Positions 321 to 64,000 of a stretch of DNA of 64,000 nt are shown piece after piece. Position numbers and translations under genes: made by a program. This stretch comes from a virus (Duplodnaviria; Caudoviricetes). How positions within the stretch are numbered: position 1 is the first letter of the stretch; every line of letters starts with the position of its first letter. The notes under the pieces were generated by a model. It was given only the letters and a program-made list of their open reading frames with translations, was not told the origin of the DNA and made no database searches. The stretch covers positions 1 to 64,000 of IMG/VR virus record IMGVR_UViG_3300010347_002008; one strand, 5' to 3'.

Positions 321-863
321 TTACTTTATCAAAACTGCGTTAATTCCTGGAATAGTTTTTAGATGATTTATGGTAAGATCATTATCATCGTAGATAGTGA
401 TCTTAGAATAATATGGTTTGATTTCAGAAAGAATTATTTTTTCTTTTAATTGTGGAATATCTTCAGCCCTAACATCTGGACTGCCAACACAATAGATATT
501 TTCAGCAGGAAGATTATTAATTTCATTTCTTCTTAAAAATTCAATAATTGCTGGTTTAACAGTTTCTCTTCTTGCTGTTATGATAAAAATAGGAACATAT
601 GATCTTGCTTCTTCTGCAGCGTCATTATAAATATGAAGTAAATACCAAGCAGGACCTTTTTTAGCTTTAATAAATTTGGCATTATCAAATTCGCTGAAAT
701 CAAATTCTTCATTAGGTTGTTTGATATAATGATTGAACTCATCAGCATCCATGGATCTTATGTATTTACCATCTCGGTATAAATGGGATCTTGCTGAATC
801 TTTCACAAGAGTATCATCAAAATCAAAGATTACGGCTTCATTACGCACAGTTTTTGCCCTCAT
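321..863 (-). CDS. HAD-superfamily phosphatase (PNKP 3'-phosphatase-like) with MRAK...NE leader
   Basis: DFDDTL motif I, ITAR motif II, YDDN motif IV. Start moved from 905 to 863 (MRAKTVRNE) because GAATATATAA lies just upstream and 864-905 overlaps a terminator. Confidence 0.7.
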   Translation of the reverse strand: MRAKTVRNEAVIFDFDDTLVKDSARSHLYRDGKYIRSMDADEFNHYIKQPNEEFDFSEFDNAKFIKAKKGPAWYLLHIYNDAAEEARSYVPIFIITARRETVKPAIIEFLRRNEINNLPAENIYCVGSPDVRAEDIPQLKEKIILSEIKPYYSKITIYDDNDLTINHLKTIPGINAVLIK

Positions 864-891
864 AATTATATATTCGAAAAGCAAATATAAT

Positions 892-918
892 AAAAAAGGG
901 GTCATTTAGACCCCCTTT
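892..918 (-). terminator. Rho-independent terminator after the 936-2297 gene
   Basis: GGGGGTC/GACCCC hairpin followed by a T tract on the minus strand. Confidence 0.7.
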
Positions 919-935
919 ATAAAGAATTTTTTAAA

Positions 936-2297
936 TTATTTAACTGTTATAGTAACTTGTTTTCCACCAGAAAATTCTGTTTGTTTCATTGGAGTTTGTT
1001 TTTGTTTTCCTGCAACTAGGTTAGGAGTTTTTTGATTTTCTTCTCTTTCCATACCTTCTACACTTTCTTCTACATCCTCTTCTTCTCCAAGTTCTTCACC
1101 TTCTTCTCCTTCAAGACCTTCAAGTTCGTCTCCTCCTTCTAGGCTGAAATCTTCACCTTCTAGTTCTTCAGCACCCTCTTCTCCAGCACTTTCAAGATCT
1201 TCGTCACCTTCGATTTCTTCTCCTTCAAGACCTTCTTCGTCTTCTACTTCTATTTCTCCACCAAACATTTCTTCGATATCAACACCTTTTTCTTCAAGCC
1301 ATCCTCTTAAAGCTTCCCATGAATCAGCAGAAACTTTAATCTGATTTTCAACAGGTTCTCCTTCTTCGTCAACTACTTGTTCAGCATCTACACCTTCTTC
1401 AGATAATTCTTCAATAGCTTCTTCAACATTATCAACTGTAATGACGAATTCAGTTATTTCTACTTTTTCTTCGCCTTCACCTTCAAGCTCTTCACCTTCT
1501 TCTTCTTTTTCTTCACCTTCATCTTCAAGCTCTTCACCTTCTTCTTCTTTTTCATCTTCAGAACCTAAATCGAGATCATCAAAAGTTAATTCATCCTCAG
1601 CTTCCTCTTCTTCAGCTTCATTTAATTTCTGACCACGTTTGGCTTTGATGTTTTCGATAATCTTTTTGATTCTTTCTTTTGTAGACTCATCCATTTTTTT
1701 GTCTTCTTTGTCACATTCTTCAATTTCTTCTTTTTCTTCGTTGCATTCTTCAACTTCTTCGTCATAGAGTCCTGGACGTGGATAACCTTTTGTGCGATCT
1801 ACAAAATCATAATTACCTACTTCGTCTTCGAGTTCTTCTTCATCAAAATCTTCAAGATCTTTAGAACTTCTAATATTTCTTAAAGATTTAAGAGGAGCCA
1901 TTTCGTTTAATTTTCTACGAATGTTTTTGGTTTCTGATTCTGAAATCTGTGATGGACTTGCAAATCTCTTAGCCAATCTTTGTCCGATAGGAGACAATTT
2001 AAAATAAGTTATGCCATTTTTACTTTCAGTAACAAAGAATTTAGAATTTCTCTGTAACCACATATTTGCAGAAGCAATAGGATTCTTAGAACCTTCATTT
2101 AATCCGGCAATAAATTTTTTAAGGTCTGTCTTTGTTACTCTTTGGCTTTCAGCAACAAAAGATAGAACCTGATTTCTTAATGGGGCTGTTGCTCCAACGA
2201 CTACTGGTTGTCTTTCACCATATCCGCGTTTGAGTGTTATAGTTTTGCTCTCATTAAGATACGCGTCAAGCGTAACTGGAACATACGATCTTTTCAT
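936..2297 (-). CDS. Extremely acidic protein, probable head core/scaffold or internal protein
   Basis: 453 aa; basic N-terminal domain, long Glu-rich C-terminal half, several LNE| sites typical of prohead-protease substrates. Confidence 0.5.
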   Translation of the reverse strand: MKRSYVPVTLDAYLNESKTITLKRGYGERQPVVVGATAPLRNQVLSFVAESQRVTKTDLKKFIAGLNEGSKNPIASANMWLQRNSKFFVTESKNGITYFKLSPIGQRLAKRFASPSQISESETKNIRRKLNEMAPLKSLRNIRSSKDLEDFDEEELEDEVGNYDFVDRTKGYPRPGLYDEEVEECNEEKEEIEECDKEDKKMDESTKERIKKIIENIKAKRGQKLNEAEEEEAEDELTFDDLDLGSEDEKEEEGEELEDEGEEKEEEGEELEGEGEEKVEITEFVITVDNVEEAIEELSEEGVDAEQVVDEEGEPVENQIKVSADSWEALRGWLEEKGVDIEEMFGGEIEVEDEEGLEGEEIEGDEDLESAGEEGAEELEGEDFSLEGGDELEGLEGEEGEELGEEEDVEESVEGMEREENQKTPNLVAGKQKQTPMKQTEFSGGKQVTITVK

Positions 2298-2367
2298 AAC
2301 ATTAAATTTTATTTTTTTATTATATATTCATGTTTGAAATTAATAAATTGCATAGTTTAACATAACA

Positions 2368-4453: not shown

Positions 4454-4467
4454 GATAAGCTTTTATT

Positions 4468-4890
4468 TTATTTATTTATTATTGGTCTCTTAAGTGCTTC
4501 TTTATAAATATTTGGATATTCTGATTTAATTTGCTTATAAATTTTTCTCCATTTAAATCCTTGATTATCTAAATCATACAAATCTCCTTCATCGATCTTA
4601 TGTATTACATCATATAAATAACCTTCTCTCATTGATTTCCATCCATCCCAACCATTAAACATTATCCAATATGATAAATTATCTAAAAAATCTTTTCCTA
4701 TAACTAAAATGTACATTTCAGAAGAAAAATTCCATACACGAGATTTTATAGCTTCTCTTTCTATAACAAAATTTATATAATGTTCTTTTAAATTTGAAGG
4801 AAAAATATCCTTAGCATTTGTAAGAATTTCTTTGTCTGATTTAGGTTTTAAAATATCTCCAATAGATTCATATATGAACTTGGCCCTCAT
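4468..4890 (-). CDS. Hypothetical protein with MRAKFIYE leader and DILKPKS motif
   Basis: ORF track; N-terminus MRAKFIYE|SIGDILKPKSDKEI. Confidence 0.8.
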   Translation of the reverse strand: MRAKFIYESIGDILKPKSDKEILTNAKDIFPSNLKEHYINFVIEREAIKSRVWNFSSEMYILVIGKDFLDNLSYWIMFNGWDGWKSMREGYLYDVIHKIDEGDLYDLDNQGFKWRKIYKQIKSEYPNIYKEALKRPIINK

Positions 4891-6716
4891 TATACGAATT
4901 TATTTTCTTTAAAATCAACAGATATAAATTGACCGCTCCAAGTTCGGTATTCGCTTGACATTGAATCAAATAATCCCCAAATAGACGGAGGTGTTACTTC
5001 TTTAAATTTTACGATCAATTTATCTTCAATAGCTCTAAAAGCCGGAAGTTGATCTTTATTATCCATTTCTCCAATATTGAAATCCTTTTCAACTCCAATA
5101 CGACCACCCATAACTTCATCTTCAAAATATAACTGTATCGCAAATTGTGATTTTTTTCCAGTATCTGTTATAAGAGCTATTGGTTCAAATTTTGGACGCA
5201 AATATTGAAACAACTCAGTTAAACTCCAAGATTGCATTAAGAAATATGCAATGACAACATCTTTATTTTCAATAGCAACTGCGTCTAGTTGTGCTTTAAT
5301 AAGATCATCGGTAAATAAAAATTTATTACCTTTCATTCTTCTTTCATTAGAAACGGAACCAATAACCACGGGACATTTCCAATTCCGATGCATAGACCTT
5401 ATATTTTCCACTTGAGAAGTTGTAAATGGACGACATTCAGTTATGTATACTACGACTTTTTCTTTTCCTTTAACAACATCTAGCATAGCAGGTTCAAAGG
5501 CCTTTTGAACAGATGCGATGACTCTCATATTGTCAATATCGGATAACTGTCTATGAGTCATTGCGCCAATAACAACATTATCAGATCTAACTTCATTGAT
5601 TGTGTTTTCTACTAATAAACCTACTTGAGGTTGGGTTTCTACTTCTTCATTAATTACATGCTTAATGACATTCACAAATGTATTGAATTTATTTACAGCT
5701 GATTCTGATAACAATCCAAATTCCTTTTTAGGTTTACGTAATGAAGATATAATAATTCTAAATAAAGCTTCATAAATTTTTCCGCCTTTCTCAAGAATAT
5801 CGATAGTTTTCTTATTTTTAATTAATAACAAATTCAATCCTCCATAATATCCATATGCTGGTGGCGTTAAATAATCTGGTTTAACACTTTCAACTATATT
5901 TGGAAATTGATCACAAAATTTATTAAAAATATCAGAGGTCAATTCTAAATACATCTCATCAGATGTTTTGCCTTCTAATACTGGAATTTGATAATTATCC
6001 ATGAATCTATTTAGATTCAAAAGTATTAAGTCATAAAAATCTCTTGACGATTCTTCTTTTTCATATGCTTCATTAAGAATATCAAATTCATATGAAACTA
6101 TTTGAGCTAGATCTTTATCCCTCTTGATTATAATGCCTTCTATAATATTTTCTTTTGAATATGTTTCTCCGAATAGACGGGTGATTGTTTTAGCAAAATT
6201 TTCATGCCATTTTTCTAGATTACCCTCAGCATAATTTTTTAATACGTTCTTTTGTTCTTCATTTAATATTCCTGCAAAAATAATTGGGGGTCTTCCAAGA
6301 CCCAATGTTGTAGCCCATTGATTTACTTCATCATACTCATAAACTTCCACAACTTTATTATTCTTACGTAAAGTGATGTCTGTTAGAACATATTTTGGAA
6401 TTTTTGAATATGGAATTCTTATAGGGCGTTCAACTGGAGTATAAGCCACTCCAAATCTTAAACCTTCAGGAAGCATAATATCTCCAATTATTGTTGATAA
6501 TTCGATAATGGCGTCTTCCCACACATTAGTTAGTGTTCTCTCAATTAGATTTAATTCAGTATTGTCCTTTTTAAAGAATACTAAATGATCTCCGTGCTTT
6601 TCAAAAAGGACTCTATAAGTATCTAACTTCTCAGTGATTATTAAATCTGAATTTAATAACTCATCGACATATTTCTCTCCTCTTTTTTCTAAGAGATACG
6701 TAAGCGTGTTTAACAT
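4890..6716 (-). CDS. RNA-ligase-like domain fused to a degenerate cytidylyltransferase-like (HIGH-fold) domain
   Basis: ITEKLDT (ligase motif I-like) and EGIIIK (motif IV-like) in the N-half; YITECRPFT resembles a degenerate GRFQPFH motif in the C-half. Confidence 0.5.
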   Translation of the reverse strand: MLNTLTYLLEKRGEKYVDELLNSDLIITEKLDTYRVLFEKHGDHLVFFKKDNTELNLIERTLTNVWEDAIIELSTIIGDIMLPEGLRFGVAYTPVERPIRIPYSKIPKYVLTDITLRKNNKVVEVYEYDEVNQWATTLGLGRPPIIFAGILNEEQKNVLKNYAEGNLEKWHENFAKTITRLFGETYSKENIIEGIIIKRDKDLAQIVSYEFDILNEAYEKEESSRDFYDLILLNLNRFMDNYQIPVLEGKTSDEMYLELTSDIFNKFCDQFPNIVESVKPDYLTPPAYGYYGGLNLLLIKNKKTIDILEKGGKIYEALFRIIISSLRKPKKEFGLLSESAVNKFNTFVNVIKHVINEEVETQPQVGLLVENTINEVRSDNVVIGAMTHRQLSDIDNMRVIASVQKAFEPAMLDVVKGKEKVVVYITECRPFTTSQVENIRSMHRNWKCPVVIGSVSNERRMKGNKFLFTDDLIKAQLDAVAIENKDVVIAYFLMQSWSLTELFQYLRPKFEPIALITDTGKKSQFAIQLYFEDEVMGGRIGVEKDFNIGEMDNKDQLPAFRAIEDKLIVKFKEVTPPSIWGLFDSMSSEYRTWSGQFISVDFKENKFV

Positions 6717-7324
6717 ATTTTTATATTTTTTAAGGTTTTTGAAATTTTTTCTTTAGATTTCAAGGAATGTTTTTTTCCAAACATTGGATTATTTTTACCA
6801 ATTGTTGCCTGTGTAATTAATTTAATTGATTCTTTTGAATGACAATGACCCTTAAATGGGGAAATTCTTCCCACTTCAGATTCACCAATTTTTCTTTTGT
6901 GATTTTCTGATAATTTTCTATTTTTTAAAGCCTCACTTAAATGTTTTTTATGTTCTTCAGTAAATTTTTTTCCTTGATGAGATTTTTTCATCTTTTCTTT
7001 GGTCAAATTAGAATGATTTTTGTTATACATTCCAATAAATTCATTAATATTTGATCCTCCTCTCTTGTTTAAATTATATCCATTTGGATATAATGTATTA
7101 TATTCATTAATATATTTTTCTTGCGCTTCATATGCTTCTTGTCTAGTATTAAATGTATCGATTACTTTTTTAATAAACTTTTCTTTTCCATATTTTTTTA
7201 TGGAATTTTTTAAATATGTTCCACTTCCTAAATACGAATCATTTGAAATGTTTTTGCAAGATCTGTCACCAACATATTGTTGGCCTGTTAATATATTAGT
7301 TGTTATATAAACGTAATGTATCAT
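6710..7324 (-). mobile_element. Free-standing GIY-YIG homing endonuclease with NUMOD3-like repeats
   Basis: HYVY...YVG, YLGSG, KYGKEKF, GYN motifs; C-terminal HS.E.K.K.S repeats and NPMFGKKH. Confidence 0.9.
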
Positions 7325-7610
7325 ATTTGACTAATTTTTAATGATTGATTTGTCCAATCCCATTTAATTGGTTCTTTTTCGCCAAAATATTTTATTTTAT
7401 AGTTCTTTAAATATTCTTCTACATCTACATAAAAGTCATCATCCCATCCATCTGCAAACCAAAATTTTAAAAATTTTCCATTAGCGCAATACCTCTTCTA
7501 TCAGGCTGTGGATGTCTAGGAGACTCCCACTTATCCCATATTGCGAATATATCATCCGCAATTCTAACTTGCTCGTTGCTCCAGCTTTCATTGATGAATT
7601 TTGCTCGCAT
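7321..7610 (-). pseudogene. MRAKFINE-leader gene split by a -1 frameshift at an A-AAT-TTT-TAA site (pseudogene, sequence error or programmed shift)
   Basis: Frame 0 gives 47 aa ending at TAA 7467-7469. The -1 frame continues LKFWFADGWDDDFYVD... to TGA 7321-7323, which overlaps the next ATG; fused length 96 aa. Confidence 0.65.
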
Positions 7611-7687: not shown

Positions 7688-8038
7688 TTATGCAAACTTA
7701 TCTAGATATTCAGGTTCAATTTTTGTTCCTCTTGCGTCCATTGCATTCATTTGTCCATCAGGACTTACTTTTACGCCGATTATTTGTCTAAAGCCTACTG
7801 TAGAATTATCAAGAATTAAATAAAAATTATAGAATACATCTTCGTCTCTTCCACCAAAACCTTTAACTATCTCTTTAATATCATCACTTCTTTTTACTTG
7901 GTAAATAGTAAATTTATCAGTTTCTTTTATAGTTTCCAGTGGTTTACCCTCAAGACGTCTTCTTATCTCATTAGTTACATCTTCTTGAGATTTTGGCTTT
8001 AGAATAGAATTGATACCTAACTGTTCTCTAACTATCAT
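7688..8038 (-). CDS. Hypothetical protein with ILKPKS motif
   Basis: Start moved to 8038 (MIVRE|QLGINSILKPKSQEDV), giving an ATGA overlap with the upstream small ORF. Confidence 0.7.
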   Translation of the reverse strand: MIVREQLGINSILKPKSQEDVTNEIRRRLEGKPLETIKETDKFTIYQVKRSDDIKEIVKGFGGRDEDVFYNFYLILDNSTVGFRQIIGVKVSPDGQMNAMDARGTKIEPEYLDKFA

Positions 8039-15659: not shown

Positions 15660-16266
15660 AATTTCCTATGTTTGTTTTAATTCCACAAAATTCACAAGTT
15701 TTTTCTATTTTATTAATGGCGTCCCAAGCGGGTTTTCCGAACATAGGATTTTTAGCTCCCATTTTTGAAATACTAATTTTGTGTCTCGTGTTAGGATTTA
15801 GTATTTTACCTTTTGTGCTTTTTGATAATTTTATTTTTGATTCATCACTAAGTTTTTTTCCTTTTCTTTTTTCAGACCATTTTAATCTTGTTTCTTCTGA
15901 ATATACGTTTGTTTTTCCTTTATTCCAAGATGGCTTTCCCTTTTTAGATAAACTCATTTTACGTTTAGATTCCTCGGAATGAACACCTCCCCAATGTATT
16001 CCACCTGATGGTGAAATATTATATCCGTTTGGAATTAACGTATTAAATCTTTCTATATAAAACAATTAGGCTCCTTCCGCTTCTTCCTTAGTATTAAATA
16101 GTTCTAAAATTTGTTTTGTAAAATTTTCTTTTCCGTATTTTTTAATAGCTTTTCTAAAGGCGACACCACTTCCCAAATAATTATCATTTAAATTATTTGA
16201 AGAGTGGTCGCCAATATATTGTTTACCATTGACAACATTAGTTGTTATGTAAACATAATGTATCAA
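15619..16266 (-). pseudogene. GIY-YIG homing endonuclease broken by one in-frame TAA
   Basis: ORFs 16066-16266 and 15619-16065 are in frame; TAA at 16066-16068 aligns with Gln in the 6710-7324 paralog (EAYEAQEKYI vs EAEGA*LFYI). Confidence 0.85.
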
Positions 16267-17849: not shown

Positions 17850-18246
17850 CTTCAAAAATTTTTTTTAAAATTTTATCTTTGCCTATCATGATGGCAGTCA
17901 ATCCTAAAGATCCTCCTTCAAGTATAGCAAATTCTTCTCCATAAATAAGTGCTTTATTAAAGCAACTTCCTCTTACAGTAAAATCAACTTTTTTTCTAAC
18001 TGAGTTTGTCATAAAACACCTTTGTACTAAAGTTCTGTATAATGAATTTTTATCACTTATAATATATATGTTGTCAGCCAGTTCATCTAGTTTTGATATT
18101 ATATACGCATATGTTTTTAGTTCCCTCTTTACAGGTTTATAATCTTGAATGAATTTTTTTAATGGATACGCATCTTTTAAATATTCATTAATAGATTGTT
18201 CTATTTGTTCTTTTGTTTTAGGAACTAAAATATTTTCTATGCTCAT
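17842..18246 (-). CDS. Hypothetical protein with variant motif (ENILVPKTKEQI)
   Basis: ORF track. Confidence 0.75.
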   Translation of the reverse strand: MSIENILVPKTKEQIEQSINEYLKDAYPLKKFIQDYKPVKRELKTYAYIISKLDELADNIYIISDKNSLYRTLVQRCFMTNSVRKKVDFTVRGSCFNKALIYGEEFAILEGGSLGLTAIMIGKDKILKKIFEDV

Positions 18247-20216: not shown

Positions 20217-21969
20217 TTTTTGATTCGTTTAATTTTGTCAAATTGTATTTTTCTATATTCTCTGACAAATATTTTAAAAATGGATAGTAATTATTTGATA
20301 CATATGTTTCCGAATCTTTATAGTTTGGGTTAGCTGTCAATATTTGTTTATTTCTTTCTTTATGCATTCTTAAAATACCATCATCAACTAAATCATCAAC
20401 AAATTTTAGTCCAAATTGATCTCCGCGAGTCACCCTAAAATCAGATCTATCAATTTGTCTATCAGTTCCGTCTAACAAACGTAATACTGCCTTCACATGA
20501 CTTGGCGGATAATGACTATTTTTATGATGATTAATATAATCTATTGCTTTTACGAAGAATAAAAATTGATTACGTTTAATTCTTTCTTGAACAATTCTAA
20601 ATATAGATTTATGGGATAGTTTATAATATAATAATTCAATTATTTTTTCAAAGAAATATTTGTTATGAAGAAACTTAAACTCTTTCTCCATCTGTATCAT
20701 TTCTTTGTGTCCCTGCCCCGAATATTTAGGTAAAACATATGGAAGATGTCCATATTTATTCATTAACTCTCCATACTTGGCCTCATCTAATATTTTCTGA
20801 TAATCTTCAGACGAAATATAATCTAATATCCAATCACTATAGGATTTGGCTAGATTAGTTGCTCTCCATCTATTTTTCAAATTTGTTTTAGCAGTATCGA
20901 TGATAGTTTGTCTAACCTTTTCTTTAGGTAAAAGTTTTAACACTCCTGATCTGTGCAATTTTTCTAAATCATATAATGTTAAGTTCTCTTTTTCAATATA
21001 CTCATTTGCATCTTTAATAACGTCTTCTTCTGCTTTTGGTTTCAAGACATCATTTATTCCTTCAACAAGAAAAGGGTATTTTTCTGCCACCTCCAATGGC
21101 AGATCTTGTTTCATGCTCTTGAGATTAACTTGAAACTTGGTCATTATTTCGTTTAACCTAGCTTTATGAATAAAATCTTTTCTATGAATTATTTCCCATA
21201 ATGTTTCAAAAGAATTAGCAGAATCAGGTTTATAACCATCTCCTAAGGCAATATCAACTACATCTTGTGGATCATTTGTGATGAATTCTGATCCTAAAAC
21301 TGTACCTTTTTGAACTATATTTCCCTTTTTGCCCATAAAAGATCTCTTAATGTTCCAAACTCCAGTCGGAAACCTTATGGCTAATGAAGTATATTCTTCT
21401 GCCTGCCCCTCAAATAATTTAGTAACTTCTTTTGTGGATTCTGAAACTAGAGCCATTAACAGTGCATTTCTTGTGGCTCCTTTATATTTTGATTCCCCTT
21501 CTGCGAGATTTGGTGAATGATACATAAATTTAGCCCATTTTAAATCAGGAGAAGGCATTAAATCTACTTGAGCATATCCTTTTGATTCATCACCACATAT
21601 AGGAACTTTGACAGATACTTGGTCAAATCCTTTTAAAAGTGTAGTTTCAAAACCATGTTCTTCATTCAATATTTGATTAATGGCTTCTGAAATTTCTTCA
21701 AATTTCATTCCATTATCCAAAAATCTTTTCGCATCAATAGCTACATCAATATCTCCAGATTTTTCCCCTTTAGGTTTTTTTCCATAAGATCCTATTGGAA
21801 GTGCTTCATTTCTTTCAATAAAAATAAGCGGAAGAATGTTTAGTTCTACCCATTCATATGTTGGTTGAACTTCATCTGTTTCTAATGGACGAACGTTCTT
21901 AACAGCTTTGCCACCCATCTTTTTTATCTTTTTTAATGTGTTAAAAATGTTATTTAAATATTGACCCAT
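20206..21969 (-). CDS. Pol-beta-family nucleotidyltransferase with a second domain after an internal KPK motif
   Basis: GSYG...SGDIDVAID and AQVDLM catalytic-type motifs; internal VE|GINDVLKPKAEEDV. Confidence 0.7.
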   Translation of the reverse strand: MGQYLNNIFNTLKKIKKMGGKAVKNVRPLETDEVQPTYEWVELNILPLIFIERNEALPIGSYGKKPKGEKSGDIDVAIDAKRFLDNGMKFEEISEAINQILNEEHGFETTLLKGFDQVSVKVPICGDESKGYAQVDLMPSPDLKWAKFMYHSPNLAEGESKYKGATRNALLMALVSESTKEVTKLFEGQAEEYTSLAIRFPTGVWNIKRSFMGKKGNIVQKGTVLGSEFITNDPQDVVDIALGDGYKPDSANSFETLWEIIHRKDFIHKARLNEIMTKFQVNLKSMKQDLPLEVAEKYPFLVEGINDVLKPKAEEDVIKDANEYIEKENLTLYDLEKLHRSGVLKLLPKEKVRQTIIDTAKTNLKNRWRATNLAKSYSDWILDYISSEDYQKILDEAKYGELMNKYGHLPYVLPKYSGQGHKEMIQMEKEFKFLHNKYFFEKIIELLYYKLSHKSIFRIVQERIKRNQFLFFVKAIDYINHHKNSHYPPSHVKAVLRLLDGTDRQIDRSDFRVTRGDQFGLKFVDDLVDDGILRMHKERNKQILTANPNYKDSETYVSNNYYPFLKYLSENIEKYNLTKLNESKNEI

Positions 21970-22640: not shown

Positions 22641-23844
22641 AATCTGGGAAATTTGATTTAAAATCGTCTCTTACATTTATTTCTTCATCATCGGTTATTT
22701 CTAATAACTTACTCTCTAATTCACTAGTAAATTCCCTTGGATCAGTATATAATGTGGTTTGTAATTGCGAACCATCTGTATTCATATAAAAGAAATCTGA
22801 ATTTATTTCGGAATATCCGGATGCCTCATATTCATATTCTCCTGTTTTAATATTAACTATAAATTTTATGTATGTAGTTAATTGTAAATCTGAACCATCA
22901 TCTTTATAAAAATTGAATACTAAGTTATCTCCTCTTAAAGAAATTGCATCTTTTTCAAAGACCCCTCCTGTGGCTGGGTCAGAAACTCCTTCACGAATGA
23001 ATTTTAATATTCCTCCTGCTTGTTCAATAGCCTTCTCCATTTCTTCAGGAGATTTCGGTTTAAATACTTGTTCTGCTACACCTTCTGTTAATTCGTCTAA
23101 ATATTGAATTGCATATTTTAAAAATAATTTATAAGCCTTTCCTCCCAATTCTTTATATGTTTTTAATAATGGATGATCCGGTGGTCTTCTTAGCATTCTT
23201 CCTCTGAACATGGGGGGTCTCATCATTTCTGGAGGCGGCATCATACCTCTTGGAGGTGGGGGCATTCTCTTAGGTGGTCCTGGTTCATATGAAGCATCCT
23301 TTAACATTTTTAATATATCTTCTTTTGAATGAAACTCCGACATTTCTTGTACAAAACTAAAAGCCATGGCCATTATTTCTTGTTTATTTCCAAAATAATC
23401 TTCTTTGGTTTTAAATGTAGGGTTTTGTTTAACTTTCATTCTATCAACTTGTTGCAAGTGTATAGTTTCGTGCCCAAATCCAGACCACAGTCTATTCAAT
23501 AGAGAATCTAATCTAGCTCTAGACATCTTAACAATCTTATCATCAAAAGTTTTATCAACATAAAGAGTAATTTTATTTGTTGAGGGGTCAAATCCTAATA
23601 AACGGATTCCTGCTTCAGGAACCATATTAGCTTTTTGAAATTCTCTTTTTTCTTCTGCAGGAATTGCAGCCATGTGTTCGTCAAAATCAACAAGACCTAT
23701 ACCCAATGGATTTAATTGTTGATTCAAATCATAAAATGGATCCCATGTTTCAGATGTTGCTACATTGACAAAAATCTCCTTAAATTGATTAAACAGATTT
23801 TCACTGGGACTTATTTTTGCTTCATTTATAAATTTAGCTCTCAT
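22618..23844 (-). CDS. MRAKFINE-leader protein with HExxH zincin-like motif, Pro/Met-rich linker and second domain
   Basis: GHETIHLQQ...QEIMAMA; PPKRMPPPPRGMMPPP; internal TE|GVAEQVFKPKSPEEM. Confidence 0.6.
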   Translation of the reverse strand: MRAKFINEAKISPSENLFNQFKEIFVNVATSETWDPFYDLNQQLNPLGIGLVDFDEHMAAIPAEEKREFQKANMVPEAGIRLLGFDPSTNKITLYVDKTFDDKIVKMSRARLDSLLNRLWSGFGHETIHLQQVDRMKVKQNPTFKTKEDYFGNKQEIMAMAFSFVQEMSEFHSKEDILKMLKDASYEPGPPKRMPPPPRGMMPPPEMMRPPMFRGRMLRRPPDHPLLKTYKELGGKAYKLFLKYAIQYLDELTEGVAEQVFKPKSPEEMEKAIEQAGGILKFIREGVSDPATGGVFEKDAISLRGDNLVFNFYKDDGSDLQLTTYIKFIVNIKTGEYEYEASGYSEINSDFFYMNTDGSQLQTTLYTDPREFTSELESKLLEITDDEEINVRDDFKSNFPDFEEDDED

Positions 23845-26395: not shown

Positions 26396-26662
26396 TTAGA
26401 TATTTATATTATAATAATTTGACATCAAAGTTTTGATTTCATCTATTAATTCTTCTTTAGATAAATTACTAAAGAAAATTTGAGGAGTCATTTTAATAAG
26501 TTCAGCCTTAGATATTAATTTATCATGATAAAGTTGCTCAGCAAAATTCCATAGAATATCTGCTAGTTGAATTTCATCTAGTTTTTCAAGATCCTTAATT
26601 TTAATATTTGATTTAGGTTTTAAAATATCTTCTAATTTTTCAATAACAAGTTTGGTTGACAT
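26396..26662 (-). CDS. Hypothetical protein with leader and DILKPKS motif
   Basis: MSTKLVIE|KLEDILKPKS. Confidence 0.75.
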   Translation of the reverse strand: MSTKLVIEKLEDILKPKSNIKIKDLEKLDEIQLADILWNFAEQLYHDKLISKAELIKMTPQIFFSNLSKEELIDEIKTLMSNYYNINI

Positions 26663-26982
26663 TATCTAAATTTATTTGGAAATATAGTTCTCCATTCATG
26701 CCCTCTAGGAACATCAGAAACCTTAACACCAAAAATTTTCTGTTCAGGACACGGATCATTACCATCTATTAAAAAATTATTGTTGCAAGCCCAAGTTTCT
26801 ATGTTTCTGCTTATTCTCTGTCCTACATTAAATGGAAATCTAATTCGTGAATTTAAATTATCTACTCTAGATATTCGTCCATCAAGATTTTTATACACAA
26901 CAAAAGACAATGATGGATTTATTTTATGTGTAAAAGTAATTTTAACATCACTAAATCCTTCATTTACAAGTTTGGCTCTCAT
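26662..26982 (-). CDS. Hypothetical protein with MRAKLVNE leader
   Basis: ORF track. Confidence 0.8.
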   Translation of the reverse strand: MRAKLVNEGFSDVKITFTHKINPSLSFVVYKNLDGRISRVDNLNSRIRFPFNVGQRISRNIETWACNNNFLIDGNDPCPEQKIFGVKVSDVPRGHEWRTIFPNKFR

Positions 26983-27977
26983 TATAATTTAAATTTATTT
27001 TCATCAATAAATTTTCTTAAATCATCAGGAATTTCATCATTATGAGCATAATCTTTGTTCCACATATATTTAGGAATATAAACAGCCCATACTCCAGATC
27101 CTTCTTGATGTTGATATTGATGTGCTGCTCTAATTTTCATCATCGGAACTTGTGATAAACTACCTGAATCATATTTATTTAATTTAACTAAATTTTCAAT
27201 TCCCATTCTTCTTTTATGAACTGTTTCTCCGCCAATTTCCTTTTCAATAAATTCAGGATAACCGATAAAAGCATATACATCATAATATTCATCTCTTAAA
27301 GCTTCTTCTTCAGAACGAGTTTCTCTATATAAAGATAATTTTAACTGTTCAATATCCTTCTTGTTAAATAATTTATTATCTCCATATCTTCCACTCTCAG
27401 GGATAGTTATGTTTGCAGCTTTGTCAAGTATGTTACTTCTTCCATATTTTTCTCCCATTTCATGAATTAATTCTTGAAGATTATCAACTTCTCGACGATC
27501 TATAGCTCCTTTAATTTTAAATAGAAGCATTATTTGATTTGTTTCTGGGTCAACTCTTGGGTCATCTTCAACATCTCTAAATAAGTCAGGCCATGATTTA
27601 AAGAACCTCCAAACTAACATAGCCTTTTCATTAAAATCTTTTTTGTTTAAAATATAATCTTTTAATTCCTTTAATAACCCATCATCTTTCATTCCTGAAA
27701 AAATATCAGGGAGTTGTTTTTCAATTTCTTCAATATAATTGACTTTTTCAATAACATCAATTTTTTGTAATTCTTTCTTTACTTCATTCCTAATATCTGC
27801 AACAACTTCAGGCTGCTGTAAAAGACCTTTATACATTTGCCCGTGTTGTTTCTGCATCTGTTGAATCCTTTTAATTTTTTCAGATACAGACATGTTTTTA
27901 ATTTGATTTAAAACCTCCACTGCTGTTTTTGGTTTTAAAATATCTCCTAAGGCCTCATATACTTTTTGTGCTTTCAT
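26982..27977 (-). CDS. Helical hypothetical protein with leader and DILKPKT motif
   Basis: Start moved from 28022 to 27977 (MKAQKVYE|ALGDILKPKTAVEV), removing the overlap with the upstream gene. Confidence 0.75.
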   Translation of the reverse strand: MKAQKVYEALGDILKPKTAVEVLNQIKNMSVSEKIKRIQQMQKQHGQMYKGLLQQPEVVADIRNEVKKELQKIDVIEKVNYIEEIEKQLPDIFSGMKDDGLLKELKDYILNKKDFNEKAMLVWRFFKSWPDLFRDVEDDPRVDPETNQIMLLFKIKGAIDRREVDNLQELIHEMGEKYGRSNILDKAANITIPESGRYGDNKLFNKKDIEQLKLSLYRETRSEEEALRDEYYDVYAFIGYPEFIEKEIGGETVHKRRMGIENLVKLNKYDSGSLSQVPMMKIRAAHQYQHQEGSGVWAVYIPKYMWNKDYAHNDEIPDDLRKFIDENKFKL

Positions 27978-27987: not shown

Positions 27988-28776
27988 TTATTTATAAACA
28001 TATCCTGCAATATGTCCTCCATAAGGAAGTATTAATTCTCTCATCCATTTCAAAGGAACATAATCAACCATTTGCCAACGCCCAATATTATTTCCATTTT
28101 GGTCATGATAGAAATTTTGTATTTGGCCAATTTGATAACTAGGTTTGGTGCCAGTTGTAAATAATAATCTATAATTAAAGAACTTTCTTTTTGTTAAATC
28201 AATTTCTTCTTTGGGTTTTGGCTTTAATATACTTGAAATTCCAGTTGATGGTGTTTCAACTCCTTGTAAATGAGTATAATCATGACCCTTTGGATCCACC
28301 CATACTTCCACAGTACTATCAGGTTCCCATGTATCATAAACATTAAAAAGTGGACATTCGCCTGTTCTTAAATCAACTTTTCCCAGAGGAAGTATAGCAT
28401 TTCCTCTAAATCGACCACTTCTTCCTGAAACTTGGATCAGTATATAATGTGGTTTATATTGTTGTTCTTTAGGAAGTTTACTACCTAATATTGGATGATC
28501 TTTAAGAACCTCAAGTCTTTCAGCCGGTGGAGGCCCTTCATATCCTAATTCCTTTGCTTTATCATAGAATATTTGAACTATTTCATTCCAACCACCATAA
28601 ACCTCTGCAGCAGCTTCTGCTCTTCCAATTGCCTTATTAACATTAGTAAGAGTTTTTGCCATTTGACGTGCCAATGCAACTTCTTTTTCAAAATCTCCTC
28701 CAGATTTCTTAGCAAAGTCCTTCACACGTTTAAGATCTTTTGGTTCGTATGCTTCATTTACAAATTTAGCTCTCAT
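27988..28776 (-). CDS. Hypothetical protein with MRAKFVNE leader and internal ILKPKP motif
   Basis: ORF track. Confidence 0.8.
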   Translation of the reverse strand: MRAKFVNEAYEPKDLKRVKDFAKKSGGDFEKEVALARQMAKTLTNVNKAIGRAEAAAEVYGGWNEIVQIFYDKAKELGYEGPPPAERLEVLKDHPILGSKLPKEQQYKPHYILIQVSGRSGRFRGNAILPLGKVDLRTGECPLFNVYDTWEPDSTVEVWVDPKGHDYTHLQGVETPSTGISSILKPKPKEEIDLTKRKFFNYRLLFTTGTKPSYQIGQIQNFYHDQNGNNIGRWQMVDYVPLKWMRELILPYGGHIAGYVYK

Positions 28777-29158: not shown

Positions 29159-29938
29159 TTAAAAATCATCATCATCTTCATAATTCCCAAAATGTGGTTC
29201 TCTTCTTTTGTTTCCAACACCAATCGAGTGTTTAGTAAGTAGAATATCCAAAACATCATTAACCTCTTCCGGATTTTCAGTTTCAAAATATTCTTTTAAG
29301 GCTTTATCAAATTGTTCATCATTTATATAATCTAAAAAATATTCAATTACATTTTGTTGATAAGGTATTAATTCTCTAATAATTTGTCTTAATTGTTCAG
29401 GCTCCATTTTTTCCATTAGAACCTCTACAAATATTTCTTCATCTGCCCCTGCATCTATTAAATATCTTACAACATCTTCAGGATTCATAAATTTATCTTT
29501 AACCGCCCGCATTTTTTCTTCAGCATCATATTGGTCAAGATACTTTTGAATGTCTTCTTTAGATTTGGGTTTCAAAACATCTGTAATAGATCCCTCGTTA
29601 ACCTCTTCTTCATATTGAACAAATCTTTCAAGAATATCTACGGCTTTGTCTAAATCTATTTGTTCAATATCATATCCTAATTGTTCAAGTGTACGGATAG
29701 CTAATCTTTCTAATTCTGATCTATCGCGAACATAATAATCTCTCAATCCTGCTGCAGCAGCATCACGTAATTGCCATTGCCACCAAGTTTCATCCATATT
29801 TAACTTAGCTTCTTGGTTCAATTCCCATTTAAATATGGGATCTTGCCATTGCCACCAAGTTTCATCCATATTTAACTTAGCTTCTTGGTTCAATTCCCAT
29901 TTAAATATGGGATCTTCAGTTACATGTTTTGCTCTCAT
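29159..29938 (-). CDS. Acidic protein with MRAKHVTE leader, 24-aa duplication and internal VLKPKS motif
   Basis: ORF track. Confidence 0.8.
   Translation of the reverse strand: MRAKHVTEDPIFKWELNQEAKLNMDETWWQWQDPIFKWELNQEAKLNMDETWWQWQLRDAAAAGLRDYYVRDRSELERLAIRTLEQLGYDIEQIDLDKAVDILERFVQYEEEVNEGSITDVLKPKSKEDIQKYLDQYDAEEKMRAVKDKFMNPEDVVRYLIDAGADEEIFVEVLMEKMEPEQLRQIIRELIPYQQNVIEYFLDYINDEQFDKALKEYFETENPEEVNDVLDILLTKHSIGVGNKRREPHFGNYEDDDDF
29771..29914. repeat. Perfect 72-bp tandem duplication (in frame)
   Basis: 29771-29842 is identical to 29843-29914; encodes DPIFKWELNQEAKLNMDETWWQWQ twice. Confidence 0.95.
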
Positions 29939-30255
29939 CCTAAAGCTCTTTTCATTAATTCATCTGTGATTTCATTCACATGATCTTGTAAAATATCACT
30001 TAAAATCCAATGTATTTTTTCATTGTTTGTTCTTCTCGAGGAACCACTCCAAAAAGAAATATAAGTATCAATTAAATCTTGGTCATCAATTCCTCTCTCA
30101 ACAAATTCATCATACAATTTTTTCCAGTTTTCTCCAAATAATTCTACAACAATGGCATATTTATTCGTTATTGATCCTTTATCTATTAATTCTTCTACAA
30201 TCTTTTTTGGATCCTTAGGTTTTAATATGTTAATGCTTTCTCTTACTAATTCCAT
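29935..30255 (-). CDS. Hypothetical protein with ILKPK motif
   Basis: MELVRE|SINILKPKDPKKI. Confidence 0.75.
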   Translation of the reverse strand: MELVRESINILKPKDPKKIVEELIDKGSITNKYAIVVELFGENWKKLYDEFVERGIDDQDLIDTYISFWSGSSRRTNNEKIHWILSDILQDHVNEITDELMKRALG

Positions 30256-31040
30256 TGTAAATCTAAATCAATTTTTTCTTTTTGCCAATCTTCTTGTACC
30301 CAAATATTAAGTAATATTTTAACACCTCCACTACAATTTGGACCTAGCCCATCAGATATAAAATTTCCTTCAATATTTTCATCTATTGTATATACGGCAA
30401 TTTGTCTTTTCCAATTATTTTTATATGCTTCTAAAACATAATCAATTAAATTATTAATTATGTTATCGGTGTTTTTAGAAAATTTTGTTAAATCCCAATC
30501 AGGTTCCCAAACATATAAAGCAATTAAGTTTCCTTTAGCTTTTTGTATTCTTTGCCTAATCGCGTCAATATCCATAATCTCTCTAATATATTGATCTATT
30601 TCTTCTTGAGATTTAGGTTTTAAAACTTCTTTAACATTTTCAGACAAATATCCTGGAACTAATTTACTTAATGCTTTATCGATACTTTCTTCTGATAATG
30701 AAGATAACATCATCTCAACTAAGTCCATTGATCCCATTTTTGCTTTTAAATCTTCTTTAGAAAATACTAAATTTTCATCATTATCAGCAAAAGGAGATTC
30801 GTCAAAGGCACTGTTATTATATAATTCTAATAATGTTTCCCAAATACCAGTATCACTTAATGTTTCATCTAAAAAATCAAGAAAATCATCATAAGATCCC
30901 CAAAATTTTGACATACCTGTTTCAAAAAGAAGTTTCTCTTTTTCTTCAACATCCATACGAGAAAAGGCCTTTTTAATTTCTGATTTAGGCTTGGGCTGTA
31001 AAATATCTTCTAATGATTCTTTGACAAACATTAAGGACAA
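30246..31040 (-). CDS. Two-domain hypothetical protein, each domain opened by a KPK motif
   Basis: FVKE|SLEDILQPKPKSEI and LSE|NVKEVLKPKSQEEI. Confidence 0.75.
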   Translation of the reverse strand: MSLMFVKESLEDILQPKPKSEIKKAFSRMDVEEKEKLLFETGMSKFWGSYDDFLDFLDETLSDTGIWETLLELYNNSAFDESPFADNDENLVFSKEDLKAKMGSMDLVEMMLSSLSEESIDKALSKLVPGYLSENVKEVLKPKSQEEIDQYIREIMDIDAIRQRIQKAKGNLIALYVWEPDWDLTKFSKNTDNIINNLIDYVLEAYKNNWKRQIAVYTIDENIEGNFISDGLGPNCSGGVKILLNIWVQEDWQKEKIDLDLQWN

Positions 31041-47541: not shown

Positions 47542-47577
47542 AGTTTTAATTTTATATTTATAAGGCTAAAGCCATTT

Positions 47578-49038: not shown

Positions 49039-49048
49039 TAGTTATTAT

Positions 49049-49270
49049 TTATATTTCAATTTTTTCTCCAATAAATCCAGGAATTTCAACTTTAAAATAT
49101 TTTTCATTCCCTGTTAAATCATAATCATTATATGAATCTGTCAAATCATTTTCAAATTGCCAACGACCAATAAGACCATCCGTAGGAAAAGCAGGCGCAG
49201 CAGCTACTTCCATCCAAGTATATTGATGATTTATCTGAGCAAATTCATTATTATAAAGTCCGTAACTCAT
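49049..49270 (-). CDS. Truncated LamG/concanavalin-like domain fragment
   Basis: GLIGRWQFENDLTDS...LTG is the first strands of a LamG-type domain, then ends. Confidence 0.5.
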   Translation of the reverse strand: MSYGLYNNEFAQINHQYTWMEVAAAPAFPTDGLIGRWQFENDLTDSYNDYDLTGNEKYFKVEIPGFIGEKIEI

Positions 49271-49284
49271 TGAATATTAATATT

Positions 49285-50094
49285 TTAATATTTAGTATCG
49301 TAAACCCATTTAATTGTCTCCGCATCTAATACGCAAGGCCATATTCGTATTCTCTCCATTGTTCCTCTTGTAAAAAATTGTTCATCCCAATCCTGACAAT
49401 TTATAAATAATCTTTTTGCAATTAAATTACTTTCGTGCACATCTAAAGGCGGCCCCACATCAACATATTTCCATCCCATTGCACCATATGTTTGAGTTTG
49501 AGCCCATAAACTTCCATCAATATAAAGTTTGATATAATTTTCTGTTTTTGTTGACCCATCCCACGTTGCGGTCAACATATGTGGTCCCGTATTATGAAAA
49601 TTAAAACTTGCATCAGCTATAAAATATGGTGTATCATAAGATGTATGTATTTTAGCTCTTGGATGATTTCCTGTATATGTGTCTAAAGTAAATCCTATTT
49701 TTTCCCCTAATGATGTATCACCCCATAAATAACCCATACTATTATTAATATGTGATGTTGTTGTTTGACCTTCTCTAACCCAAATTGAATATGTAAATCC
49801 TTTATTTGCATCAAAACAAGCCATTGTCGATGCGTTTGTCCCTGCAATCCAATAATATCCTGATACATCAACATCAATATAAAGAGATGATGTATCATCT
49901 AAAATAGCACTTTCTCCAAAGACATATTCAATTCCTGTTTCTGTTCGTAAACTTGCTCCTTGATTATTAATTCTTGTATAATCTCCATCTAAATCCCATC
50001 CATAAGCAAGACAAGTTGTATAAAATGAAGAATCAGGAGTAAAAGGAATAATCCTATTTTGTTCCAAAATTCCGTGTCTTAAAAATTGACTCAT
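49285..50094 (-). CDS. LamG/concanavalin A-like lectin domain protein
   Basis: AYGWDLDG, FTYSIWVR, HMLTATWDG, LYIDG, RIRIW. Confidence 0.8.
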   Translation of the reverse strand: MSQFLRHGILEQNRIIPFTPDSSFYTTCLAYGWDLDGDYTRINNQGASLRTETGIEYVFGESAILDDTSSLYIDVDVSGYYWIAGTNASTMACFDANKGFTYSIWVREGQTTTSHINNSMGYLWGDTSLGEKIGFTLDTYTGNHPRAKIHTSYDTPYFIADASFNFHNTGPHMLTATWDGSTKTENYIKLYIDGSLWAQTQTYGAMGWKYVDVGPPLDVHESNLIAKRLFINCQDWDEQFFTRGTMERIRIWPCVLDAETIKWVYDTKY

Positions 50095-50104
50095 TTTCTA
50101 ATAA

Positions 50105-61759: not shown

Positions 61760-61779
61760 AATATTAGAGTTTTATTTAT

Positions 61780-61830
61780 ATATCCACTCTCTATCAAAAC
61801 TTCCTCCATGGGAAAAATATATAGATAAAC
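61780..61830. promoter_or_regulatory. Divergent late-type promoter pair
   Basis: GATATATAAATAA on the minus strand (about 61781-61793) and AATATATAGATAA on the plus strand (about 61816-61828). Confidence 0.5.
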
Positions 61831-61861
61831 ACTTAGTATTAACGCAAAAACTAAAATAAGT

Positions 61862-63097
61862 ATGAATAATTTTGAAGATTTCAACTGGGCGGAATTTGAA
61901 GGAAATCATCGAGGTGGAAACCGACTAATTCCAAACGAGAAAATCAAAGGTCAAGACAATCACAACATCTGTTATTCAAGAGCCCCCTACGCTCAAAAAA
62001 TGTTTGACCTCCTCTCTGACAACAATTCCCAAACAATTAAAAAAGATTTAACGAAAGGAGACTGCGTTGTAATTACCGACATCTATAACGTTAGGTTAGA
62101 TAAAATGTCAATAGAGCTATCTGGCGGTTTATCTGTGGATATTGATTTAAGTCGAGAAAAGAGATTTCTACAAATATTTGGTTATAATACAGTTGACCAA
62201 TTTGTGGAAGATATATTAAAGCCTCAATTTAAAGTTAAATTTTTAGAACAAGGTATTTATGCATATGTAATAGAATCTTCTCCAACAATTAAAATTTCAT
62301 TATGGCAAGGCCATTTGAAAAAGATAAGAGAAGAATTTATGAAAGAAATAGAATCACCTTCTAAAGCTTATGTTGCAAAAGTAATGGAAGCCAATAAAGG
62401 TGGTTATTTTGTTGAGGTACAAGGAATAGAGGCATTTATGCCTGGTTCATTAGCAGCTCCAAATAAGATCATTGATTTCCGAACATTAGTTGGAAAAGAA
62501 GTTATAGTGATGGTTGAAGATTTCTTAAAGGAAATGAATTCATTCATTGTTTCTCATAAGAAATATATCGAACATGTTCTTCCAAGAAAAATAGCTGAAT
62601 TAGATCTAAATCATAAATACACAGGAAATATAACAGGAACTTCTAAGTATGGAATATTTGTGGAATTTGGGGACATATTTACTGGATTATTACATAATTC
62701 TAAAATGAAAGAAGATACTTTAAGAGATTTTAGAAATAGAAAATATAATCCAGGAGATCAAATAAGTTTTTACATCAACGAAATAACTAAAGACAATCGA
62801 ATTATTTTAACTGAAGAAAGCCCGGAAGAAAAAAGAGAAAAATTCACTAAATTCATTTTAGAAAACAAAGAAAAAGTTATTGATGCTGAAGTAGCAGCAG
62901 TCATGAACTTTGGAGTAATTGTAAATGTTGGAGAGCTTTCTGGCTTAGTACCAAATAAAGAATTCAAACGAAGAAAAATAGCAGTTAAAAATTATGTAGT
63001 CGGCGATAAATTCAAAGTAAAAATAGCGGACTTTAAAGACGATAAGTTAGTCTTCGACTTAATTAGCGAAGATAAAAAACAAGAAGAGGGAGTTTAA
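61862..63097 (+). CDS. Multi-S1-domain RNA-binding protein (ribosomal protein bS1-like)
   Basis: GGYFVEVQGIEAFMPGS, YGIFVEFG..FTGLLH, FGVIVNVGELSGLVP: three S1 repeats plus a degenerate N-terminal one. Confidence 0.85.
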   Translation: MNNFEDFNWAEFEGNHRGGNRLIPNEKIKGQDNHNICYSRAPYAQKMFDLLSDNNSQTIKKDLTKGDCVVITDIYNVRLDKMSIELSGGLSVDIDLSREKRFLQIFGYNTVDQFVEDILKPQFKVKFLEQGIYAYVIESSPTIKISLWQGHLKKIREEFMKEIESPSKAYVAKVMEANKGGYFVEVQGIEAFMPGSLAAPNKIIDFRTLVGKEVIVMVEDFLKEMNSFIVSHKKYIEHVLPRKIAELDLNHKYTGNITGTSKYGIFVEFGDIFTGLLHNSKMKEDTLRDFRNRKYNPGDQISFYINEITKDNRIILTEESPEEKREKFTKFILENKEKVIDAEVAAVMNFGVIVNVGELSGLVPNKEFKRRKIAVKNYVVGDKFKVKIADFKDDKLVFDLISEDKKQEEGV

Positions 63098-63110
63098 CAC
63101 TCCCTTTTTT
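63087..63110 (+). terminator. Rho-independent terminator
   Basis: AGGGAGT-TTAAC-ACTCCCT followed by TTTTT. Confidence 0.8.
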
Positions 63111-63141
63111 ATTTTGAATAAATAAAATAAATCGTTGATCA

Positions 63142-64000
63142 ATGCAAGCTAACTTTGTATACGAAGCTTTACAAGATATATTAAAACCTAAATCCAAGGA
63201 AGAAGTTACCGCGGCTTATAAAAAAATCGAAACCGATAAGGCTTTAGAATTGGCGGTGGAACATAAAAATTTAGAAGGGGTTTTTGATGCTTTACGAAGA
63301 GGAGCTTCATGGAATAAAAATGATTCTTATCAGAGTTTAGAAGATAGTTTGCTTTTATTTTTGTCAAAAAATAAACAAGAAATTTTATCAGGTAATCCAT
63401 CCCATAAAACATTAGGTGTTTTATTAAAGCGGGCTTCTCAAAACGGATTTATTGATTTAATTAAATGGGCTTTAGACAAAGGGGCCCCTATAAATTTTCA
63501 AGATCAAAATGGAAGTACTCCACTTTATTATGCTGCTAAGTATGGTCATTTTGAAGCCCTTAAATTTTTGATTGAAAACGGGGCAGATTTAGAATTAGAA
63601 AATAATGAAGGGTTTACTCCCCTATTAGCATCATTAAATCCTATTCAAACCGGACCAAATTCTAATTTCATAAATCCGCAAAGTGTGTGGTATTTAATTG
63701 ATAACGGTGCTGATATAACCCATAAATTAAAAAATGGGTCCAGCATTTATGTATTTTTAAAAGGAAAATTATTGGATAGATTTTTGGATGAAACAGATTT
63801 AAAACCTAGTGATGAAGAAACGATTTATATAATTCATCGAGGTTCCATTAAAAATATAAAAAAATTATTAGATAAAGGATATTTAGATCTAAATAAACCC
63901 ATATACATTAAATATTCCAAATGGGACAACAAACCCAATAAACCATTACTGCCAATAGATCATATTAAATTTGAGGATGAAACAGGACCAGGAAAAATGA
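63142..64000 (+). CDS. Partial ankyrin-repeat protein with leader and DILKPKS motif
   Basis: Hand translation MQANFVYE|ALQDILKPKSKEEV...; ankyrin repeats GSTPLYYAAKYGHFEALKFLIENGAD and GFTPLL; open to the window end. Confidence 0.85.
   Translation, partial: MQANFVYEALQDILKPKSKEEVTAAYKKIETDKALELAVEHKNLEGVFDALRRGASWNKNDSYQSLEDSLLLFLSKNKQEILSGNPSHKTLGVLLKRASQNGFIDLIKWALDKGAPINFQDQNGSTPLYYAAKYGHFEALKFLIENGADLELENNEGFTPLLASLNPIQTGPNSNFINPQSVWYLIDNGADITHKLKNGSSIYVFLKGKLLDRFLDETDLKPSDEETIYIIHRGSIKNIKKLLDKGYLDLNKPIYIKYSKWDNKPNKPLLPIDHIKFEDETGPGKM

Follow-up and report, generated by a model that had tools for sequence, protein, structure and literature searches.

A portable two-part peptide module on unrelated accessory proteins of a Lak-related megaphage, possibly a cut-and-load signal for the phage head

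Introduction

Internal proteins of bacteriophage T4 have in common a 10-residue capsid-targeting sequence (CTS), whose cutting by the gp21 protease depends on Ile at residue 8 and Glu at residue 10, and the propeptide leaves afterwards (PMC9026906, PMC3012670). Giant phages cleave many of their head proteins after Glu, and in SPN3US the proteins gp53 and gp54 have diverged while their N-termini are identical (PMC5694885). Here we describe a recurrent peptide module in an uncultured giant phage, a Lak-related megaphage of ~400 kb, which was analyzed in bases 1 to 64000 of a 79,876-bp IMG/VR virus record, IMGVR_UViG_3300010347_002008 (CheckV completeness, 20%); this stretch of 64,000 nucleotides is called the window. 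Judged from its sequence, the module is a portable peptide of ~25 residues, and in this lineage each accessory domain that folds independently has one at its start. We tentatively read it as a cut-and-load signal for the phage head, giving this reading not quite an even chance.

Results

A two-part module heads about one-fifth of the genes

The window was compared with G001, a conspecific contig of 259,840 bp (90 to 99.9% nucleotide identity), which spans the whole record, and with a 59,913-bp contig (G044) that carries the sequence on beyond the terminase. Contigs were extended via a search for related loci, and the available sequence amounted to 316 kb, with ~20 to 35% of the genome unsampled.

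The initial annotation had noted a leader, M-[RK]-A-K-x-[IV]-x-E, at the start of many proteins. All 13 N-termini that it listed were located (positions 863, 4890, 7610, 23844, 26982, 28776, 29938, 27977, 63142, 26662, 30255, 31031, and 8038), the true start being an internal Met in three of the open reading frames (ORFs; 863, 27977, and 8038). The leader proved to be real but incomplete, as it forms only the first half of a two-part module. Most leaders are followed by [SAG]-h-x-D-[IV]-[LF]-K-P-K-[ST]-x-E-E-[IV], so that the full consensus reads M-K-A-K-F-[VI]-[NY]-E-[SAG]-[ILV]-x-D-[IV]-[LF]-K-P-K-[ST]-x-E-E-[IV] over ~25 residues; the consensus derived from an alignment of 20 copies was x-x-x-x-E-x-x-x-D-I-L-K-P-K-S-x-E-E-I. 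A profile of 31 canonical G001 copies, numbered from the first residue of I-L-K-P-K as position 0, features V/I/L at -7, E at -5, S/A/G at -4, I/L/V at -3, D at -1, I/V at 0, L/F at +1, K-P-K at +2 to +4, S/T at +5, E/D at +7 and +8, and I/V/L at +9. Partial forms occur as well, some proteins having the leader only (MRAKF[IV]NE) and others only the KPK part. Copies devoid of Met lie within longer ORFs (window nt 21048, 23067, 28230, 29578, and 30626), and more were found at 64 to 80 kb of the record.

Approximately 63 of the 316 G001 ORFs (~20% of genes) begin with the leader and/or the KPK part, and the module profile matched 25 times in the record and 58 times in G001. The core [ILVF][LF]KPK was observed 45 times in G001, compared to 0.83 expected from shuffled proteins. 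The genome-wide scan of N-termini proposed in the initial annotation gave a similarly clear result, M[RK]A[KRQ]x[IVL]xE being found at position 1 of 22 G001 proteins versus 0.01 expected. At the DNA level, the leader pattern had 16 matches in G001 and none in three Lak-type genomes (Lak-A1, LR756500, and LR756501, with 0 in each; 1.7 Mb in total), and a reversed control pattern had none.

The proteins behind the module are diverse. With the modules masked, 72 carriers resolved into 67 BLASTP singletons or small groups, in agreement with the earlier remark that the downstream domains are unrelated; the candidate explanation that the carriers form one paralogue family was rejected, the masked cargos having almost no mutual BLASTP similarity. 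Several proteins have ankyrin repeats; the other recognizable cargo comprises an XPD-like helicase, a cupin, a HAD-like phosphatase, and HExxH proteins. A 1425-residue protein combining a ResIII helicase with an Eco57I-type methylase (DarB-like) has a leader-like start, and its gene adjoins that of the portal protein. The leader of the HAD protein, 9 residues long, is set straight before the first catalytic motif, DxDxT; a second HAD-like gene (24875-25285) lacks the leader. For most carriers, Pfam and PHROGs returned no informative match, an ESM Atlas search gave nothing informative, and no phiKZ-type inner-head protein family of Pfam (e.g., PF12699) was matched among the carriers examined. 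The module is absent from replication proteins and from tail and baseplate proteins. Strain-to-strain divergence, compared between two strains, did not differ between module carriers and other genes. The sequence thus bears out the earlier view of a portable tag on unrelated accessory proteins, and both the tag and a cleavage-like site within it are well supported at this level.

Internal copies correspond to N-terminal ones

A 609-residue protein (L003:9683-11512) illustrates the relationship between internal and N-terminal copies. The stretch of residues 295 to 609, which begins at an internal module, aligns over its full length (34% identity, E = 4e-36) with the whole of a separate 315-residue protein from a related contig. 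The N-terminus of the latter consists of the MRAKFINE leader followed by a KPKT module; two more cases of such correspondence were found. Since an internal copy in one phage aligns with the leader at the N-terminus of a separate gene product in a relative, module and domain have been shuffled as a unit.

When 1.84 billion representative proteins were searched with a profile of the module, 390 metagenomic clusters were obtained at E <= 0.001, of which the best 150, <50% identical to one another, were used for the statistics that follow. The module was N-terminal in 131 of these 150 representatives, 122 contained at least two modules, and the median spacing between modules was 142 residues. Internal copies keep the aliphatic residue at -7 as well as the Glu at -5 and the small residue at -4. 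Among 197 internal copies, Glu was retained in 89% and the following Ser/Gly/Ala in 83%, Asp and K-P-K-S were kept, and polar, linker-like residues preceded the module; M-K-A-K-F was conserved at true N-termini only. Some metagenomic proteins have 5 to 13 modules each, as in polyproteins, and the 1591-residue protein P0172 features 13 copies of the variant N-E-S-V-R-D-K-M-T-P-K-S-x-E-E-I between ankyrin and other units.

Such arrays would suit a head-independent processing of polyproteins, in which a Glu-specific protease of phage or host splits the units in the cytoplasm and thereby switches the effectors on or sets their timing. The regular spacing in proteins of up to 13 modules, the fusion and fission of units exactly at the module, and the HExxH-like motifs of two carriers are consistent with this explanation, but the loss of 7 residues would bring no benefit to single-unit proteins, a protease dedicated to the task was not found, and polyproteins are unusual in tailed phages. 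On balance we consider it improbable.

Selection acts on the peptide

The codons of the invariant Lys-Pro-Lys correspond to genome-wide usage, with the third positions of Pro and Lys varying freely, and residues identical across copies are specified by the same codon in 61% of pairs, compared to 55% expected from codon usage. As the module codons track genome usage, selection is on the peptide and not on the DNA: the constraint is at the peptide level, with no excess at the RNA or DNA level. A DNA- or RNA-level cause of the module was therefore ruled out by the codon analysis, nothing beyond the peptide being constrained.

This result largely refutes a recombination cassette, that is, a conserved DNA stretch at gene boundaries that drives module shuffling. 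Units are shuffled at the module, and two leader genes have a common terminator-promoter cassette upstream, which would fit, but the near-expected same-codon rate and the free third positions leave this explanation scarcely any probability.

An expression or stability cap would also operate through the gene start: the A-rich start and the N-terminal helix would help translation start or block degradation, and internal copies would be leftovers of fusions. Bacteroidota lack Shine-Dalgarno sites, none was found in the window, and gene starts here are A-rich; the restriction of M-K-A-K-F to true N-termini likewise agrees with a cap. It does not explain why internal copies are conserved equally to N-terminal ones across clusters <50% identical or why core replication and structural genes lack the module, and codon usage reveals no RNA-level constraint, all of which makes a cap quite improbable.

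The conserved core is predicted to form a helical hairpin

AlphaFold2 was used to model an 89-residue carrier (predicted local distance difference test [pLDDT] value of 70.6). The model features a helix at residues 3 to 11, a break at K-P-K-S, and a second helix at residues 16 to 31. The hydrophobic residues at -7, -3, 0, and +1 would fit an amphipathic first helix, and S-x-E-E may act as a helix cap. The fold model of a two-module protein of 261 residues was too poor for use (pLDDT, 45).

The hairpin invites an alternative without any cleavage, in which helix-KPK-helix docks onto one common partner, whether a hub protein of the phage, a chaperone, the shell of a compartment, or a factor from the host, and the Glu and small residue are simply part of the helix. 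It is the predicted hairpin that is conserved best, each domain retains its own module copy even in fusions, and carriers lie in several operon types, all of which would be expected of a docking element; short helical loading tags are moreover a known principle (P22 scaffold helix-turn-helix, encapsulin, and microcompartment peptides). Left unexplained by docking are the near-invariant Glu and small residue with an aliphatic residue two before, the existence of leader-only proteins (MRAKF[IV]NE with no KPK part), and the polar linker ahead of internal copies. We regard an uncleaved docking module as unlikely, with more in its favor than in that of the polyprotein and cap explanations.

The module is restricted to one viral lineage

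The module was detected in ~45 IMG/VR contigs, many of them with multiple copies. It is no feature of the clade as a whole, being absent from Lak-A1, LR756500, LR756501, Flavobacterium phage MaF61, Chryseobacterium phage MA9V-2, and Tenacibaculum phage PTm1. An origin from a host signal was also rejected, since the single matches scattered over the 185,579 prokaryote species scanned were about as frequent as estimated for chance. By these searches the module is confined to one viral lineage, and a literature search for the module motif gave no match.

The relationship to Lak phages is apparent from the window helicase (39% identity to that of Prevotella Lak megaphages) and from the gp6-like baseplate wedge protein (42% identity to Prevotella Lak megaphages), remoter baseplate-wedge matches being found in jumbo phages of Flavobacterium, Chryseobacterium, and Tenacibaculum. 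The window has a G+C content of ~30% and uses the standard genetic code, with 62 TAA, 18 TGA, and 8 TAG stops. BACON domains in tail proteins and promoter motifs of the TAnnTTTG type point to Bacteroidota as the host. The BACON domains are found in two tail-like proteins (window 35928-38003 and 38048-40024, both on the minus strand). A phage beta-helix protein at G001 237209-238804 (L080:17209-18804) has a C-terminal type IX secretion sorting domain (Por_Secre_tail, 35.9 bits).

Carriers occur in several operon types

Several carriers lie in baseplate operons, and one adjoins the terminase operon. Of the 9 occurrences of the 16-mer GAATAAATAAAATAAA in G001, 8 lie ahead of a gene start, and 6 of these 8 genes are carriers (Fisher p = 0.001). 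At the genes starting at 23844 and 63142, a terminator-like hairpin is followed by the 16-mer, forming a common terminator-promoter cassette.

The promoter classes are predictions. A second motif, ATATATAAATAAA, a candidate phage promoter class, lies ahead of tail, baseplate, and portal genes and many others; within it is TATAAATA, the core of T4 late promoters. It was seen 6 to 14 nt before tail-fiber, baseplate, and other genes, in the window upstream of 61759, 38003, and 49038 (all on the minus strand) and in G001 at 40697, 78109, 100882, and 251454. Host-type TTATATTTG motifs precede a few genes, 321-863 among them. TTTTTTATTATATTTG, a Bacteroidota-type TAnnTTTG promoter motif, is located upstream of both HAD-like genes (863 and 25285, minus strand), which suggests early expression by the host polymerase.

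Head genes and a gp21-like homologue

In Lak-A1, the one Lak phage tested, a Peptidase_S77 protein (57.6 bits) and a Gp23-type capsid gene were identified. The phage studied here has a homologue of this protease with 184 residues, 31% identical to the Lak-A1 S77 protein over residues 28 to 165. The gp21-like gene is intact in a relative (L218:1405-1959, 184 residues) and appears to be split by a frameshift in G001 (186440-186993; L116:1370-1923). A search for Lak protease homologues returned Lak relatives only, and the annotation of PTm1 was unproductive as a route to head genes. PF03420 had no match in G001 or in 47 related fragments, which leave ~20 to 35% of the genome unsampled.

Feature coordinates and further observations in the window

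The module copies of the window and the 16-mers are compiled in Table 1.

TABLE 1 Module copies and promoter-like 16-mers in the window
Feature	Position (nt)	Strand	Gene or context
Leader MRAKTVRNE	837..863	-	Gene 321-863, HAD-like phosphatase; leader directly abuts DxDxT
16-mer GAATAAATAAAATAAA	4462-4477	-	8-11 nt before start codon
Full N-terminal module, leader + ILKPKS	4825..4890	-	Gene 4468-4890
Leader MRAKFINE	7587..7610	-	Gene 7467-7610
N-terminal module MIVRE...ILKPKS	7976..8038	-	Gene 7688-8038
Short N-terminal module MSIENILVPKTKEQI	18202..18246	-	Gene 17842-18246
Internal module LVEGINDVLKPKAEED	20998..21072	-	587-residue protein, 20206-21969
Internal module	23020..23094	-	Gene 22618-23844
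Leader MRAKFINE	23821..23844	-	Gene 22618-23844, HExxH protein
Promoter-like 16-mer GAATAAATAAAATAAA	23856..23871	-	11 nt before leader gene 22618-23844
16-mer GAATAAATAAAATAAA	24869-24884	-	8-11 nt before start codon
N-terminal module MSTKLVIE...ILKPKS	26582..26662	-	Gene 26396-26662
Leader MRAKLVNE	26959..26982	-	Gene 26662-26982
N-terminal module MKAQKVYE...ILKPKT	27891..27977	-	Gene 26982-27977
Internal module	28183..28254	-	Gene 27988-28776
Leader MRAKFVNE	28753..28776	-	Gene 27988-28776
Internal module	29528..29602	-	Gene 29159-29938
Leader MRAKHVTE	29915..29938	-	Gene 29159-29938
N-terminal module MELVRESINILKPK	30187..30255	-	Gene 29935-30255
Internal module	30576..30650	-	Gene 30246-31031; between helical half and alpha/beta half
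N-terminal module MFVKESLEDILQPK	30954..31031	-	Gene 30246-31031
Promoter-like 16-mer GAATAAATAAAATAAA	63116..63131	+	10 nt before leader gene, after terminator hairpin
N-terminal module MQANFVYE...ILKPKS	63142..63228	+	621-residue ankyrin protein

The ankyrin gene ends at 65007 of the record and has two further internal modules past the window. A 30-codon ORF at record 68180-68272 (L003:8180-8272, plus strand) consists of the module only (MKAQKVYEAIGDVLKPKT...), followed by a stop, and could represent either a remnant or a module peptide in free form. In gene 29159-29938, a 24-residue segment, DPIFKWELNQEAKLNMDETWWQWQ, is exactly duplicated in tandem directly after the MRAKHVTE leader. Between two strains (G000 and G001), window 29398-30237, in the island of leader genes, could not be aligned, nor could 47242-52531, in the tail-fiber region. 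A 411-residue protein with three S1 RNA-binding domains is encoded at 61862-63097 on the plus strand. ORFs resembling GIY-YIG homing endonucleases (IYVTTN..NGK..YIG) are located at window 6710-7324 and 16066-16266 (both minus strand) and at record 77416-78138 (plus strand), with many further ones in G001.

Discussion

In the cut-and-load reading, which we favor tentatively, the module would comprise three parts: a short N-terminal M-K/R-A-K-F, present at true N-termini only; an aliphatic-x-Glu followed by Ser, Ala, or Gly; and an amphipathic helix that a K-P-K turn joins to a second helix, capped by S-x-E-E. The module would be recognized by a Glu-specific protease of head maturation, of the same type as T4 gp21, and would tether its proteins to the core of the assembling head; cleavage after Glu would then remove a leader of 7 to 9 residues and part fused units from one another. 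The freed effectors (ankyrin proteins, phosphatase, helicases, and the DarB-like helicase-methylase) would ride in the head and reach the host cell together with the DNA. What we infer is thus cleavage, loading into the head, and injection, loading from the precedents of T4 and giant phages and from the gene neighborhood. In favor of this reading are the frequency of the module far above chance, the selection on the peptide, the unrelated cargo, the Glu site retained in internal copies, the exchange of units and the proteins of 5 to 13 modules, the leader set directly before the first catalytic motif of the HAD protein, the predicted helix-break-helix shape, the protease and capsid genes of Lak-A1 together with the gp21-like homologue, and the position of carriers in baseplate operons and near the terminase operon and the portal gene. 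The T4-like capsid targeting put forward in the initial annotation holds in part: the aliphatic-x-Glu-small pattern matches gp21 sites, as a pattern only, but conservation is strongest after the Glu.

That last point is one of several that weigh against a cut-and-load signal, for the best-conserved stretch, D-I-L-K-P-K-S-x-E-E-I, follows the presumed cut, whereas the CTS of T4 precedes its cut. Some carriers share operons with replication genes or, like gene 321-863, follow a host-type promoter motif. With ~20% of the genes encoding head cargo, the load would be far above that of any studied phage. Lak phages with the protease (Lak-A1 tested) do without the tag. The gp21-like homologue falls below Pfam thresholds and has no Ser at the aligned nucleophile position, and neither a capsid gene nor a clear S77 protease was found in the 316 kb available, the search having covered G001, G044, and 45 other fragments.

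A broader proposal, which we find doubtful, is that in this megaphage lineage one two-part peptide code loads dozens of unrelated effectors into the head and cuts multi-unit precursors there, involving about one-fifth of the genes. If true, the giant capsid would serve to deliver a large and freely shuffled arsenal of proteins, assembled from module-plus-domain cassettes. Should the module prove to be a load-and-cut signal, many of the dark genes of a megaphage would encode injected effectors, phage cargo would evolve by shuffling of tagged domain cassettes, and a compact, sequence-defined packaging tag with a cleavage site, distinct from that of T4, would be at hand. Even without capsid loading, one module on ~20% of the proteins and at every domain joint (up to 13 units) in a single lineage is unusual for a tailed phage.

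Among known systems, the T4 CTS of IPI-III and Alt, cut by gp21, is similar in being a short N-terminal peptide on otherwise unrelated accessory proteins, in ending with aliphatic-x-Glu before a small residue, and in having cargo that resembles counter-defense or takeover enzymes; T4-type head and baseplate genes are present in Lak-A1, the one Lak phage tested. It differs in that the leader up to Glu measures 7 to 9 residues here and 10 to 20 in T4, that the module has a second, stronger conserved block after the Glu and also occurs internally at domain joints, and that there are ~60 carriers per 260 kb, scattered over many operons, compared to 4 to 5 in T4.

The propeptides of phiKZ, 201phi2-1, and SPN3US (cut by gp175/gp245 after [S/A/G]-x-Glu) likewise concern giant phages and cuts at Glu sites in many head proteins, with several sites per protein and diverged paralogues with identical N-termini (PMC5694885, PMC9026906). 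There, the residue two before Glu is small and the propeptides mostly exceed 100 residues, whereas in the module this residue is aliphatic and the leader has 7 to 9 residues; the carriers there are paralogue families without a KPK hairpin, whereas here they are unrelated.

Polyvalent proteins and effectors of the P1 DarB type resemble the carriers as large multidomain effectors believed to accompany the DNA, among them proteins that combine a helicase with an N6-methylase (1425 residues here). Iyer et al. reportedly proposed in 2017 that polyvalent proteins are processed into domains. Here, unlike in those proteins, every joint has one defined 25-residue module, which also heads single-domain proteins. 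The C-terminal helix-turn-helix of the P22 scaffold, encapsulin peptides, and microcompartment peptides are, like the predicted structure of the module, short, portable, and mostly helical, and they serve in shell loading; they are usually C-terminal or uncleaved and bear no sequence relation to the module. Load-and-cut by a gp21-type protease has a precedent in T4, from which the module, as judged by its sequence, differs in its two-part form, with the KPK block after the Glu and with internal copies.

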